35,443 bases of DNA from a virus (taxonomy: Duplodnaviria > Caudoviricetes): the IMG/VR virus record IMGVR_UViG_3300025296_000057, positions 1 through 35,443 of that record; one strand, given 5' to 3'. The notes under the pieces were generated by a model. That model saw only the letters and a list, made by a program, of their open reading frames with translations, ran no database searches and had not been told where the DNA came from. Shown piece by piece: positions 647-35,115 of the stretch. The translations under genes and the position numbers were made by a program. Position 1 is the first letter of the stretch. Each line of letters opens with the position of its first letter.

Positions 647-659
647 AATTCCTCCTAGA

Positions 660-730
660 ATTATTTAGTTTGTGTATGTATACAATTGTATACTAATTGT
701 AGTTATTTGTGTATAATTTTAAGTACAAAT
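660..730. promoter_or_regulatory. Divergent early promoter region with palindromic operator candidate
   Basis: Lies between divergent ORFs; perfect 16-bp palindrome GTATACAATTGTATAC at 678-693; TATAAT at 712-717 on +. Confidence 0.6.
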
Positions 731-778
731 TAAACTATTCCTGGAATTGATTTCCAGAGAGAAAAGGAGAAAAGATTT

Positions 779-1051
779 ATGGAAAATGTCATAAAAATTA
801 ATGGTATCGTATACGTCAAGGCCACAGCTCTAGTATCTAAAGTTGAAGTAGGTAGCGACAATGAACCACATATTTTTGATTATTACCTAGACAGAGAAAA
901 CAATAACGAACATTGTTATCCTGAAATGCTTACACATTATACAGAGAAAAATGATTGGGATTATATTCAATGCTTTGATGTGGCCAATCCAAAAAAACTA
1001 GAAATAATCGAAATGAGCCTGGATATTTGTCCAGAGAAAAGGAGAAAATAA
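779..1051 (+). CDS. Hypothetical early protein
   Basis: 90 aa, AAGGAG RBS, coupled to the next ORF (TAATG). Confidence 0.8.
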   Translation: MENVIKINGIVYVKATALVSKVEVGSDNEPHIFDYYLDRENNNEHCYPEMLTHYTEKNDWDYIQCFDVANPKKLEIIEMSLDICPEKRRK

Positions 1052-7016: not shown

Positions 7017-7315
7017 AATTTATAGAAAAAATAGATATTGAAACAGAAGAAAGAGTAGAAATTGCATTATCAAAAGAAATGTTTTGTATGGTTTTAGCTT
7101 TTTGCAAATTAAGTCTTTGGAAAGATGATGATGATTTTGAATTACGAATAGAGAGCGCTATAGACCATTTACTTGGTTATGGTATGGAAATGCAACATCA
7201 AGCAGCAGGATTTACTAAAGATTGGGCAACTAATGTGGAATGGTTTGAAGAACAATCTAAAGAAAGAACATATAAATTATACGAACAATTAAAAAAAAGG
7301 AGAACTAATGAATGA
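7013..7315 (+). CDS. Hypothetical protein
   Basis: 100 aa, ATGA overlap with the methyltransferase. Confidence 0.75.
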   Translation: MKFIEKIDIETEERVEIALSKEMFCMVLAFCKLSLWKDDDDFELRIESAIDHLLGYGMEMQHQAAGFTKDWATNVEWFEEQSKERTYKLYEQLKKRRTNE

Positions 7316-7499
7316 AGAAGATAGACTATTACTAAGCGTTAATGATGCTATGTATATGATGTCCATAAGTAGAGGCACATTCTATGGTCTGATAAACTCA
7401 GGTCAGCTAGAGTCATTAAAGATTGGATCTAAGAGGTTAATACCTAAAGATGCTATTGAAAAATACATAGAAAAGAATGTTAAAAAAACACATTCATAA
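7308..7499 (+). CDS. Excisionase-like (HTH_17) DNA-binding protein
   Basis: LLSVNDA...ISRGTFYGLINSGQLESLKIGSKRLIP. Confidence 0.9.
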   Translation: MNEEDRLLLSVNDAMYMMSISRGTFYGLINSGQLESLKIGSKRLIPKDAIEKYIEKNVKKTHS

Positions 7500-7614
7500 A
7501 TATATCCATCCACCTCCTAATGGCAGAGAAAGTATAGGCAAGTGCAGTTGTGGAAAAAAAGATTTGGCTTACAACTCTACAGAATATAATATTTGGAAAG
7601 GAAAAAGGAAATGA
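7477..7614 (+). CDS. 45 aa His/Cys metal-binding microprotein
   Basis: Hand translation MLKKHIHKYIHPPPNGRESIGKCSCGKKDLAYNS...; its stop overlaps the RusA ATG (ATGA). Confidence 0.7.
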   Translation: MLKKHIHKYIHPPPNGRESIGKCSCGKKDLAYNSTEYNIWKGKRK

Positions 7615-8168
7615 ATCCTGAGTGGAATATTAAAGTAGAGAGAAGCAGCGACATTATGAAAGATAGCCTTGTTGCCAAATCTCACACAAAAATAACCTTA
7701 ATAACAGATACCAGGGCCTTGCCTCAACCTAGGCAGAACTATAAAAGTAGGTTTACCAATAAAAATGCCAGAAGGTATAACGAATGGCGTAAAGTTATTC
7801 GTGACACTTTAAGAGTAGCTTGGCAGTCCAAAACTAAAGGCCTGATTAATACTTATATCAGAGCATCATTCGAGTTCGGAGGGATAGCTTCAGCTCCTCC
7901 GGATGCCAGAAGAAATAAAGACGGCAGCACAGACAAGAGGGCAATTAAGTCAGTCTTGGACTATGACCTTAATAATTTAGTCAAGAGTACCGAGGATATT
8001 TTTAACGGCATTGTATATAAAGACGATATTGTTATTAGAGAATACGGCTATTGCAAGGCAGTAGATACGTCAAAGGATTTTATTAAAGTAGTTATTGAAG
8101 ATAGCGATGGAGCTACGATTTTCCAACCTAATCCAAATGAACCGAAGAAAACTAATGTACCGATATAA
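7611..8168 (+). CDS. rusA: RusA-like Holliday junction resolvase
   Basis: PQPR...YNEWRK, DLNNLVKSTEDIFNGIVYKDD; ATG 7611 has an AAGGA RBS. Confidence 0.85.
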   Translation: MNPEWNIKVERSSDIMKDSLVAKSHTKITLITDTRALPQPRQNYKSRFTNKNARRYNEWRKVIRDTLRVAWQSKTKGLINTYIRASFEFGGIASAPPDARRNKDGSTDKRAIKSVLDYDLNNLVKSTEDIFNGIVYKDDIVIREYGYCKAVDTSKDFIKVVIEDSDGATIFQPNPNEPKKTNVPI

Positions 8169-8293
8169 AAGCGTGGTAGAAAAGGAGTCAAACTTAAAAA
8201 ACTTTTTGAAAGGGCTTTATGAAAAAACTTTTATTTTTAAAACGTTTTTTGGAGGTTCAACTGATTAACAAACTAAACAATTACCACCACGCT
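8167..8293 (-). ncRNA. Putative small RNA with anti-Shine-Dalgarno tracts
   Basis: Starts 7 nt after a perfect extended -10; 5' AGCGUGGUGG pairs with 3' CUACCACGCU followed by U's. Confidence 0.55.
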
Positions 8294-8299
8294 AAAAAC

Positions 8300-8308
8300 A
8301 TTATAGCA
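8300..8308 (-). promoter_or_regulatory. Extended -10 promoter
   Basis: TGCTATAAT on the minus strand with no downstream minus-strand gene. Confidence 0.7.
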
Positions 8309-8310
8309 TA

Positions 8311-8469
8311 TCACATTCTAAAACTGAACTGATAAACTGATTTTTTTTCTTTACTCCGGTATCCACACTTCGGGCAGCGTTCAACAGTATCTTCAAAGGT
8401 ATCCTTTCGGACTTCAAAGGTTTCTACCTTGCAATCATCAACATTACATATATAGTCATACGAAGGCAT
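8311..8469 (-). CDS. FmdB-family zinc-ribbon protein, 52 aa
   Basis: Hand translation MPSYDYICNVDDC...FEVRK...CPKCG; TAATG coupling to the upstream gene. Confidence 0.85.
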   Translation of the reverse strand: MPSYDYICNVDDCKVETFEVRKDTFEDTVERCPKCGYRSKEKKSVYQFSFRM

Positions 8470-9746
8470 TAGTCTGGCTGCCTTTCAACTTCTGCCATAA
8501 GCACCTCTAAATTCCCCGTTACATCCCAGGTTGCTGAACGAACTGTACTTGATACTGTAAACGCTTTAGTTACAAGAGAACTATCCCCTCCAATTCGATT
8601 GAACTCAATAATTAGTTCTCCGATATCAAGTTTCTTCAGATCACAAGTGCCTCCGGATGATACTATATTTTCTAGTATTAGTTCGTTCACTTTTGTCTTA
8701 CTAGCTGTCTGACTATCTAGTGGCGAAATCCAGAGGCGATCATATGTTCCTCCATTAGTTTCAAGAAGGTCTGCACCAAACGTGCCTATAGAGTGCCTTA
8801 TGTTAGGTTGCGTGCTTGTAGCACTTTGATAAATAGACAATCCGTCTGCTTGATTATCTTTAATGGTTACTTTGTTTGCGTTTATATTTTCAAGGTTTAA
8901 AGTTTTACAACTGTTCCTAGAGAATGTTAGCTTGCCTACTTCTATTCTTGTTGCATTACCATCTATTAATATAGCCTCTGTTTTACCACTAGGTAGTGCA
9001 GATGGTTGACCATTACTTGCATAAGATGTTCCTAGGTTGACTGATGATATATTTAACTTATCTACAGGAGTTTCATTAAGAATTACCCTGAGCGTGTTGT
9101 CCGAAGGATTGTCCTTACGCCAAGCCATTTCTTTCTCCAGTTCTTCGCTTGGTAGGTTTTGTGGTGCAAGATATATACCAGCATCTCCATTAGCAAAACT
9201 TCTTTCTTGGATTACCTCTGCAACTACTAAAGTACCACCTGTTGCACCTCCAATTCCTAATATAGCTATGGCAAGTTGGGGATTCACGCCAAGACTTCTA
9301 AGAAGTGAATATGGGGATTTTAGTACGGTAAAGAACCTACGCCACTTAGCAGATTCTCCATTTAAATATTCTATCTTGTTGAAAAGCCAGTCCCTAAATA
9401 GTTTAAGTTCCTTATAAAAGGTAACGGGAGAATAAAGAATTGCCCTTGGGGAGGCTTTAATACCCTCATAGACGGCTTTTAGGCTCCTAATGTGTATCAC
9501 GTACCCAAAAACAATAAAGAACGATGATATTGCGATGCTTAACCAGTAGTATTCCTGGAAGTAAGCCAGGTACTCCATAACGCTAGAGTATGTAATGATT
9601 CCGAATGGAGTCTGTACTGGTGCCATTGCCCACCATAAGTTAACAGGGTTTACTAGAGTGATACTAAGGCCAATAGCTCCTGCGATTACTATAACGAATG
9701 TAATTACGTATAAGAAGGCATCCAGTATTTTATATAATCTTTTCAT
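8469..9746 (-). CDS. Membrane protein with C-terminal beta-solenoid-like domain
   Basis: Hydrophobic segments at about aa 10-33, 66-86 and 158-177, then repeated short beta-strand patterns (KTLNLENINANKVTIKDN, NELILENIVS). Confidence 0.7.
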   Translation of the reverse strand: MKRLYKILDAFLYVITFVIVIAGAIGLSITLVNPVNLWWAMAPVQTPFGIITYSSVMEYLAYFQEYYWLSIAISSFFIVFGYVIHIRSLKAVYEGIKASPRAILYSPVTFYKELKLFRDWLFNKIEYLNGESAKWRRFFTVLKSPYSLLRSLGVNPQLAIAILGIGGATGGTLVVAEVIQERSFANGDAGIYLAPQNLPSEELEKEMAWRKDNPSDNTLRVILNETPVDKLNISSVNLGTSYASNGQPSALPSGKTEAILIDGNATRIEVGKLTFSRNSCKTLNLENINANKVTIKDNQADGLSIYQSATSTQPNIRHSIGTFGADLLETNGGTYDRLWISPLDSQTASKTKVNELILENIVSSGGTCDLKKLDIGELIIEFNRIGGDSSLVTKAFTVSSTVRSATWDVTGNLEVLMAEVERQPD

Positions 9747-9847
9747 CTACTGTAGACTTCTCCTAAAGTTATTATCGCAGCCAACGTAATCGCCAACAAG
9801 CCTGTTATAACAAGGACTCTACCATTAGTTTTCCTTGTTTTTTTCAT
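9743..9847 (-). CDS. 34 aa single-TM peptide
   Basis: Hand translation MKKTRKTNGRVLVITGLLAITLAAIITLGEVYSR; ATGA overlap with the next gene. Confidence 0.65.
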   Translation of the reverse strand: MKKTRKTNGRVLVITGLLAITLAAIITLGEVYSR

Positions 9848-10058
9848 TCTTAAAAGAAGCTTGATACCTCGTAGCTCGAGCATTTAGGCTGTTAACGTAG
9901 TTCATTAAAGAAGCTTTAGGGACTAGTCGTTTTTTACCATCTAATATTGATGTTAGCTTGTTTGCTTTCAGAAGCTTATAAATTTCGGATCGACTGACCC
10001 CTAAGACATCAGCTACTTGCTGTGGTCTAAAGAAAAATTGTTCTAGTGTTGCTGTCAT
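9825..10058 (-). CDS. Second excisionase-like (HTH_17) protein
   Basis: RPQQVADVLGVSRSEIYKLLKANKL...GKKRLVP; AAGGA RBS. Confidence 0.88.
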   Translation of the reverse strand: MTATLEQFFFRPQQVADVLGVSRSEIYKLLKANKLTSILDGKKRLVPKASLMNYVNSLNARATRYQASFKNEKNKEN

Positions 10059-34577: not shown

Positions 34578-34763
34578 TTAACTATTCCACTCTAAAGAAT
34601 TAACACATTTAGAACACATAAATTGTTGAGTTAATTTATTCCAAAATACACTCTTGGTTTTTAGATTGTAACCACCATACGACCACCCAAATAATTTATC
34701 GCAACAATAAGTTACATCTAATTTTTTTAGTAGTCTAAATTTAATGTAGTTTAATAATTTCAT
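34578..34763 (-). CDS. Small Cys-containing hypothetical protein
   Basis: 61 aa, YCCD...CSKC, GAGGAG RBS, ATGA overlap. Confidence 0.65.
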   Translation of the reverse strand: MKLLNYIKFRLLKKLDVTYCCDKLFGWSYGGYNLKTKSVFWNKLTQQFMCSKCVNSLEWNS

Positions 34764-34996
34764 ATTGCTAACTCCTCCTCTGCCTCAGTCAAATGACTTG
34801 CCTTTTTGAACTTATCAACATCAAATCTATCATTAGACTGAATGAAGATATTAATTAATCGATTTTCAATATTATCAATTAATCCCAAGAATGAATCTTG
34901 AGAACCGAAAACATCATCATTTGATAAATGTTGAATTGCTAACCTTTCGTTTTTTAGCATTTGAGCTATTTGTATAAAATGTTGTTTAGTAAACAT
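34760..34996 (-). CDS. Phage hypothetical protein
   Basis: MFTKQHFIQIA...SNDRFDVDKFKKA; AAGGAG RBS. Confidence 0.8.
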   Translation of the reverse strand: MFTKQHFIQIAQMLKNERLAIQHLSNDDVFGSQDSFLGLIDNIENRLINIFIQSNDRFDVDKFKKASHLTEAEEELAI

Positions 34997-35115
34997 TTTT
35001 TAATCTCCTTTAATTGTTTAAGTTGTTAAGTATATTTTACTAAAGTACAGCTAAAAAAGATATTATTTTAATCTTAAAAATGGATAATTTGAGTTCTGTA
35101 GCAGTAAGCCTAGAA

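Follow-up and report, generated by a model that had tools for sequence, protein, structure and literature searches.

A minus-strand RNA gene that is very probably real and conserved lies where the two arms of a phage genome converge, in a window comprising the whole 35,443-nt stretch of DNA that was analyzed (IMGVR_UViG_3300025296_000057, positions 1-35,443). The RNA, designated type A, probably acts in trans, pairing with the messages of the phage's own early genes and repressing their translation. This reading derives in part from the complementarity between a conserved, exposed segment of the predicted RNA and the leaders of the first early messages.

The RNA gene, its relatives and the likely host

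The record is marine: 20 runs contain it, and all 17 that are labelled are marine metagenomes. None of the 20 is listed as an RNA run, which carries no information on expression. The plus-strand early arm encodes an exonuclease, replication initiator, DnaC-like loader, methylase, HTH protein and RusA, and the minus-strand late arm encodes terminase, capsid and tail proteins and, as its final gene, a 52-aa zinc-ribbon protein. The arms converge at 8168-8311. The RNA gene, its parts and its flanks are as follows.

7611-8168, plus strand: RusA-like resolvase, final gene of the early arm, flanking the RNA gene
8167-8293, minus strand: predicted type A sRNA of about 124-127 nt (homologues 94-124 nt), from fold and conservation
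8170-8179, minus strand: 3' arm of closing stem P1, pairing with 8293-8284
8178-8187, minus strand: seed B, a conserved 3' anti-SD tract similar to the 16S 3' tail in the likely host group
8186-8193, minus strand: 3' arm of inner stem P2, which is less certain than P1
8194-8254, minus strand: variable centre with non-conserved GCCCUUUC and anti-start tracts, from tract counts over seven types
8255-8262, minus strand: 5' arm of P2 (80% of cells paired; 2/7 rows misaligned)
8263-8283, minus strand: seed A, a GU-rich 5' bulge that is conserved, predicted to be single-stranded and complementary to the leaders of the first early genes
8284-8293, minus strand: 5' arm of P1, beginning at the seventh base after the -10 box
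8300-8308, minus strand: extended -10 box, TGn plus TATAAT (8305-8300), with spacing kept in 7/7 types
8311-8469, minus strand: zinc-ribbon (FmdB-like) gene, final gene of the late arm and the other flank (PF09723, below the curated cut-off)

Among the 42 window proteins scanned, neither an integrase nor a repressor was recognized. Two HTH_17 (excisionase-like) genes are present, one in each arm (7308-7499 and 9825-10058). A contig that is nearly identical to the window measures 37,033 bp, and the window therefore may miss about 1.6 kb. The locus L001, which is 99% identical otherwise, carries a patch of 25 substitutions in rusA (window 7667-7783) and a replaced 3' half of gene 8469-9746 (window 8469-9315); the RNA gene between the two patches is identical.

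The extended -10 element, TGCTATAAT, occupies 8308-8300 on the minus strand, and the corresponding -35 position falls within the 3' end of the zinc-ribbon gene. The promoter was omitted by a promoter scan because its -35 is poor, and an extended -10 box by itself was not above chance (one found versus 2.87 expected from shuffles). The P1 arms form 10 bp that include one G-U pair, and the molecule is predicted to adopt the shape of a rod with an asymmetric internal bubble. The fold is weak on its own, with z values of -1.8 on the minus strand and -2.0 on the plus strand. A cmscan search of the whole window against Rfam (E<=5) matched no family, the sole match being a chance hit to mir-101 outside the RNA gene, and ARAGORN returned nothing. 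It is conservation in relatives that places the element above chance, not the box or the fold by themselves. An earlier sequence-only reading of this DNA had described the extended -10, the 7-nt spacing, the paired arms, the tracts and the RBS complement, and these statements all hold. Its observation is confirmed and its interpretation is partly supported. The U-run that it placed after the stem is present (8169-8167, overlapping the rusA stop codon), but comprises only 4 U in the window and 2-4 U across types.

Relatives were collected by aligning RusA homologues, with which 29 loci were fetched; the 26 with a complete gene were read. The element was present at 14 of these 26 rusA loci as seven distinct sequence types. 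The remaining loci comprised six with other RNA-like cassettes, one with other genes, and five that ended early or were without a match. The -10 hexamer ends 7 nt (six types) or 6 nt (one type) before the first G of the stem, TG is found at -15/-14 in 6/7 types, and TTTACA is located 17 nt upstream in 5/7. P1 pairs in 69/70 cells (98.6%) over the seven types. Two pairs are changed on both sides, and the seven one-sided changes all yield G-U or U-G on the minus strand. As the earlier reading stated, the G-U pair in the window works on this strand only, as it would become an A-C mismatch on the plus strand. The P1 covariation score of 0.246 was reached by 1/500 shuffles, a control that ignores the relatedness of the seven types, and slid-register controls scored 0.03-0.07. 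The fold z was lower for the minus strand than for the plus strand in 6/7 types. As the centre varies, so does RNA length, from 94 to 127 nt. The sequence-only reading had anticipated precisely this outcome for a minus-strand sRNA gene, namely a covarying closing stem around a variable centre, with promoter and stem retained, as they are in 7/7 types. The region also is not kept merely as a plus-strand peptide, as the overlapping ORF is not maintained.

Further searches delimited the distribution of type A. In contigs from six DNA or unlabelled runs the element was unchanged in close relatives, with one L021-like variant. Among DNA pattern scans of viral contigs, two gave only near-identical phage and a third gave five matches, all attributable to chance; the scans were not exhaustive, as the L021 contig fits two of the patterns yet was unlisted. 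A scan with the replication initiator produced no new genome. Every type-A locus that extends to the replication-initiator gene possesses an initiator of the window type. A covariance model, R1, built from the seven types recovered only these training types from 69 sources, found nothing in 101 genomes of the order of a SAR202 MAG or in three further sources, and found nothing convincing in the G117 prophage described below. As the R1 searches gave no new match, there is no sign of a host copy among the genomes searched.

The capsid protein matched 8/401 genomes in the class of the SAR202 MAG and 0/88 genomes of the SAR324 phylum. We take the former class to be Dehalococcoidia. One of these capsid matches is a prophage with an integrase in a Dehalococcoidia genome (G117:C4, ~784000-817000, in a 1.36-Mb contig), which has nine genes in common with the window at 32-50% identity, of which eight are late-arm genes in the same order as in the window; type A RNA was not found in this prophage. 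A profile search of genome contigs with the zinc-ribbon alignment gave only weak matches (32-47% identity). Dehalococcoidia (SAR202-type) bacteria are the likely host group on these protein similarities, as a lead and not a result.

Predicted pairing with early leaders

The window RNA carries tracts at 8256-8251, 8227-8219, 8215-8208 and 8187-8178. The sequence-only reading had assigned three anti-SD tracts to the loop, which is true in this phage, but only the 3' tract is conserved: UCCUUU and UUUGUU occur in 7/7 types and a longer GU-rich 11-mer in 5/7, whereas ACCUCC, GCCCUUUC and UUUUUUCAU each occur in a single type of the seven, as does the anti-start tract. As these tracts lie in the variable centre of one type, the earlier suggestion that three anti-SD seeds with an anti-start act against MKKL-type genes is unsupported. 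The variable centre often contains more C-rich tracts, with CCAAG in 3/7 types. The 16S tail in the likely host group is CCUCCUUUCU in 10/12 cases and CCUCCUUUUU in 2/12. The conserved GU-rich 5' bulge, seed A, did not feature in the earlier reading. The sites at which the two seeds are predicted to pair in the window are as follows.

659-673, minus strand: predicted site A in the leader of gene 236-646, 15 bp with one G-U
725-735, plus strand: predicted site A that opens the gene 779 leader (11 bp, one G-U) and precedes a hairpin
760-769, plus strand: predicted site B at the SD of gene 779, 10 bp with seed B
1035-1044, plus strand: predicted site B at the SD of gene 1051, 10 bp with seed B
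35011-35021, minus strand: third predicted site A, in the leader of gene 34760-34996, 11 bp

Outside the RNA gene itself, no stretch of the window complements the RNA over a greater length than the site at 673-659, which is positioned directly before the SD of the first leftward gene, 236-646. In the window, G001 and L041, which are all of the type-A genomes for which the divergent early control region is available, site A lies ahead of the first gene to either side of that region; another site A in G001 precedes gene 577. Seed A pairs over 11-15 bp with 6/6 divergent first leaders in the three genomes, compared to 1/64 other leaders in type-A genomes and 6/310 leaders in 11 non-type-A records, a pattern noticed post hoc in three genomes. 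When the bulge was shuffled 3000 times, at most 3/6 first leaders were matched. Seed A matches were located before an SD and start in 6/11 cases in the three type-A genomes versus 4/42 in 13 non-type-A records (Fisher p = 0.003; three type-A fragments without the control region were left out). Base-level co-variation of seed and target within type A was observed in one case, L041. In G001, the first leftward early ORF encodes a 17-codon peptide directly after site A (L102:17519-17572). This ORF overlaps the RBS of the next gene, and translational coupling is possible.

The exact complementarity of the RNA to the RBSs of genes 779 and 1051, proposed previously, is accurate: AGAAAAGGAG occurs at 760 and 1035. 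In the leaders of gene 779 and of G001 gene 1627, a 5' site A and the SD (site B) flank a hairpin, and joint net energies of -11.4 and -12.6 kcal/mol, respectively, were calculated with junction penalties ignored. Net energies lie in a modest range overall (-8 to -12 kcal/mol), with a cost of 7.7-8.3 for opening the two seeds. With accessibility-corrected ranking, early genes occupied positions 2-6 among the 34 start regions of the window and 1-7 among 21 in G001. Genes 1051 and 779 were third and fourth of the 34, which agrees with the anti-RBS action on phage early genes that the sequence-only reading had predicted. Rank 1 in the window was a late tail gene, matched via a non-conserved tract in the variable centre. 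Early genes outranked late genes with p = 0.03 (17 versus 17) and p = 0.046 (17 versus 4) under a split that was corrected afterwards; the first test, in which leftward early genes had counted as late, was not significant (p = 0.36 and 0.24). Seed B showed no enrichment for the phage's own early RBSs over the RBSs of other phages (2/13 versus 10/138, p = 0.28), nor did it in G001 (p = 0.27) or L041 (p = 0.47). By these comparisons of predicted pairing, seed B is generic for type A and seed A is the best-supported specificity element.

Candidate RNAs in the same slot of related phages

The slot past the zinc-ribbon gene was followed into the wider family by means of a zinc-ribbon alignment that fetched 39 viral loci, of which 26 were read. 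At many of these loci the early strand carries a promoter of sigma-70-like type, an RNA of 60-95 nt that exposes a C/U-rich loop, and a terminator hairpin. Seven RNA types besides type A were distinguished in the relatives, all of them candidates. Each lies just past the zinc-ribbon gene and comprises a putative promoter, exposed anti-RBS loop and terminator.

Type B: loci L031, L033, L038 and L058
Type C: loci L020 and L062
Type D: loci L060, L064 and L074
Type E: loci L068-L070
Type F: locus L072
Type G: locus L075
Type H: locus L061

The resulting set of 16 slot RNAs of eight types was delimited by eye from promoter and terminator; the procedure was not blind, as one match had already been noticed. 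Loci without an evident slot RNA were left out (G588, L036, L063, L065-L067, L071 and L076-L080), as was L073, a duplicate type. A CATTC-like motif is found in the -35/-10 spacer of the B, C, E, F and G promoters, with GGACAG upstream. The same motif also ends the zinc-ribbon gene beside the type A promoter (window ~8313-8322), and may be a regulator site. Inspection by eye of L060 (2172-2255), L064, L073 and L074 showed a hydrophobic ORF of 26-27 aa after the zinc-ribbon gene, which runs toward the type D RNA without overlapping it; its product could be a membrane or lysis peptide or resemble a type I toxin.

The slot RNAs were compared in a matrix with early starts, 'early' here denoting plus-strand ORFs with an SD, a few of them spurious. 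When each type was represented by a single RNA, the assignment of each RNA to the early starts of its own genome was the best of 40,320 permutations by both statistics. The result was robust to the use of unmasked RNAs, to two other representative sets (p<=4.5e-4) and to the removal of each type in turn, and dinucleotide-shuffled RNA sets fell short in 12/12 cases (trace -10.0 versus +0.9 to -3.8). Early starts outscored late starts within the genome for G002, G003, G585, G005 and G587 (p = 0.0007-0.015); this did not hold in G584 and G004. In counts of 10-bp duplexes, the effect was clear in G002, G005 and G587, borderline in G003, and absent in L020, G585, G004, G586 and type A. Type-A RNAs themselves ranked anywhere from 1 to 12 of 12 in the family matrix. 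Matches extend past the SD core in a phage-specific manner, for example AGCGAAAGGAA in G003 and GAAAGGAGAAC in G005. As these extensions differ by phage, a shared 16S tail would not produce them. Overall, co-variation of seed and target, as expected of a trans-acting sRNA, was found across the slot types and in the joint presence or absence of site A.

Competing readings, proposed action and known systems

The main rival to repression by pairing is that site A is a DNA operator, or an orientation-specific roadblock, for a phage protein such as the HTH_17 product of 7308-7499, and that the RNA has another job. It takes this place because site A is located at predicted starts and a conserved HTH gene travels along with it; we nevertheless regard it as unlikely. 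In the leaders inspected by eye, site A lies about 6-11 nt after a -10-like hexamer, and the HTH gene is 65-90% identical across type-A phages. The plus-strand copy within the RNA gene (about 8268-8282) is oriented as early transcription is, and no plus-strand terminator was found there. An operator does not fit well with the same copy being predicted as single-stranded within a covarying stem, with the match of the right-hand leader of L041 to a seed extension that is absent from the window and G001 RNAs, or with the family-wide correspondence of RNA and RBS, which it would leave unexplained. About 6/8 internal differences between site and seed, scored by eye, also are G-U compatible, a weak point as C-to-T changes are common anyway.

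A second alternative, of rather lower probability, is that a multi-target anti-SD RNA is directed mainly against host mRNAs, either to free ribosomes or to silence defence or transport functions, with the phage RBS matches as a by-product. The resemblance of seed B to the 16S tail of the likely host group, the absence of preference of this seed for the phage's own RBSs and the frequent further C-rich tracts in the centre would suit such a role, and the PreS RNA of lambda regulates host genes (10.1101/2024.10.31.621285). Against it, seed A singles out the phage's own first leaders and the other slot RNAs follow the RBS variants of their own phages.

It is very unlikely that the element is simply a terminator or insulator at the arm junction whose stem ends the late transcript with no separate functional RNA. 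Its location at the ends of both arms, the U-run after the stem and the plain hairpin terminators at the same place in other phages are compatible with this function, but the element has a conserved promoter of its own and conserved loop sequences, and a loop of ~100 nt with 2-4 U makes a poor terminator. Improbable to a still greater degree is a 6S-like polymerase decoy, in which stems and bubble mimic an open early promoter and the bulge templates a product that reads like the start of an early transcript. The rod with its internal bubble and the identity of the bulge complement with the early transcript start recall such a decoy. However, no Rfam match was obtained (E<=5), the anti-SD tract would stay unexplained, and 6S RNA is far larger than this molecule of 94-127 nt, whose closing stem measures 10 bp. 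The cis-antisense role suggested by the sequence-only reading, as type I antitoxin of a 37-aa plus-strand ORF (8219-8332), can virtually be dismissed: the ORF overlaps the RNA fully and has an SD-like GAAAGGG, but it is absent or unrelated in 6/6 other types, is not hydrophobic and has no Pfam or PHROG match, and was judged spurious.

We favour repression of early translation by trans base-pairing. The anatomy of the gene, its conservation, the complementarity and the cognate bias are observations, whereas transcription, pairing, repression and timing are proposed. As the conserved exposed seed mirrors the start of the first early messages, the RNA likely shuts down early protein production. 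The RNA would be transcribed by the host sigma-70-type polymerase and perhaps also be produced as the 3' end of late-arm read-through; the host-type promoter and possible late read-through together suggest that it accumulates after infection. Specificity would come from seed A, pairing with the A/C-rich 5' end of each early promoter's first message, and seed B would cover the SD; in the gene 779 leader, sites A and B flanking the hairpin could be bound together. Early translation would thereby be switched off with a delay, making the RNA in effect an equivalent of T4 RegB. The RNA possibly also damps a superinfecting sibling phage, and a role in a quiescent state is offered as a suggestion only.

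A broader and more tentative proposal, to which we give somewhat less than even weight, is that the arm junction is an exchangeable slot for 'early-off' RNAs into which at least eight structurally different RNAs have been swapped, each tuned to its own early leaders. RNA and RBS tag together would form a heritable, phage-specific code of timing and immunity, which may explain the SAS motifs of K1 mycobacteriophages discussed below. If so, the RNAs would constitute a general timing device that is predictable from sequence alone, being replaced in relatives yet re-matched, and would offer a rare handle on gene control in phages of hosts that are probably Dehalococcoidia (SAR202-type). Shut-off of early translation by phages is known mainly from the T4 proteins RegA and RegB (PMC3014915), and descriptions of phage sRNAs are few (10.1101/2024.10.31.621285). 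In the literature, which was covered incompletely for subscription papers, no report was found of a phage RNA that matches its own early RBSs family-wide.

Among known systems, the c4 RNA of P1/P7 is an RNase P-cut molecule of ~77 nt with three stem-loops that serves in an immunity system; one of its elements partly covers the RBS and the other binds upstream and gives specificity (PMC5320573). Type A resembles c4 as a phage-encoded, putatively trans-antisense RNA, closed by P1, with two exposed elements and predicted targets in mRNA of its own phage. Elements predicted to pair both upstream and at the RBS likewise were found, in the leaders of gene 779 and G001 gene 1627. It differs in having its own predicted promoter, in a closing stem with an asymmetric internal loop in place of two hairpin loops, in its length of 94-127 nt without the three stem-loops, and in predicted targets that are the first genes of all early promoters. 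The presence of a conserved promoter immediately ahead of the type A RNA speaks for a 5' end that is primary, and the Rfam C4 models gave no match in the whole-window cmscan (E<=5).

GcvB is a host regulator of amino-acid transport whose seed pairs with an ACA-containing sequence upstream of the SD in several mRNAs (PMC3879156). Site A of type A starts with ACA and seed A is complementary to ACA leaders, a likeness in complementarity only; there is no sequence relation or Rfam match, and type A possesses a second, anti-SD seed. The streptococcal csRNAs, of 87-151 nt, carry anti-RBS and anti-AUG tracts in all members (PMC4507080). A similar anti-start tract is located in the centre of the window RNA. 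However, the anti-SD core is present in 7/7 type-A types and the anti-start tract in 1/7, and again there is no Rfam match. The Rfam 6S model did not match the type A RNA, and no conserved small toxin ORF lies opposite it as in type I toxin-antitoxin pairs. T4 RegB is a protein nuclease proposed to inactivate early messages at the SD, thereby helping the switch from early to later expression (PMC3014915). Type A differs in that it would act by base-pairing. The OOP RNA of lambda acts in cis position on cII-O. OOP is described as antisense to phage cII-O mRNA, and PreS/LPR1 as a phage sRNA that targets mainly host mRNAs (10.1101/2024.10.31.621285), whereas the predicted targets of type A are situated 7-9 kb away in the same genome.

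The SAS of cluster K mycobacteriophages are phage-specific extended RBS motifs before non-structural genes, with a role that is stated to be unknown (PMC3203893, PMC11373665, PMC7302621). In Adephagia (JF704105), 31.6 kb examined contained 16 forward SAS copies before starts and a single reversed copy. The latter (~58682-58694) reads as an anti-SD and falls within the apical loop of a long hairpin predicted for the gap between genes 92 and 93, where late transcription is reported to begin (PMC11373665). Neither the whole AnnaSerena genome nor the right-hand 7 kb of Pixie and of TM4 contained a reversed SAS with <=2 mismatches. As the parallel is found in one of the four phages examined, it is a lead for subcluster K1 only; it makes testable in a laboratory host whether a phage RNA binds the SAS motifs, a question open since 2011 (PMC3203893) and still ill-defined in PMC11373665. 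Overall, type A RNA appears to stand outside the c4, csRNA, GcvB, 6S and type I systems and, if the predicted pairing is real, would act in a manner akin to c4 and GcvB.
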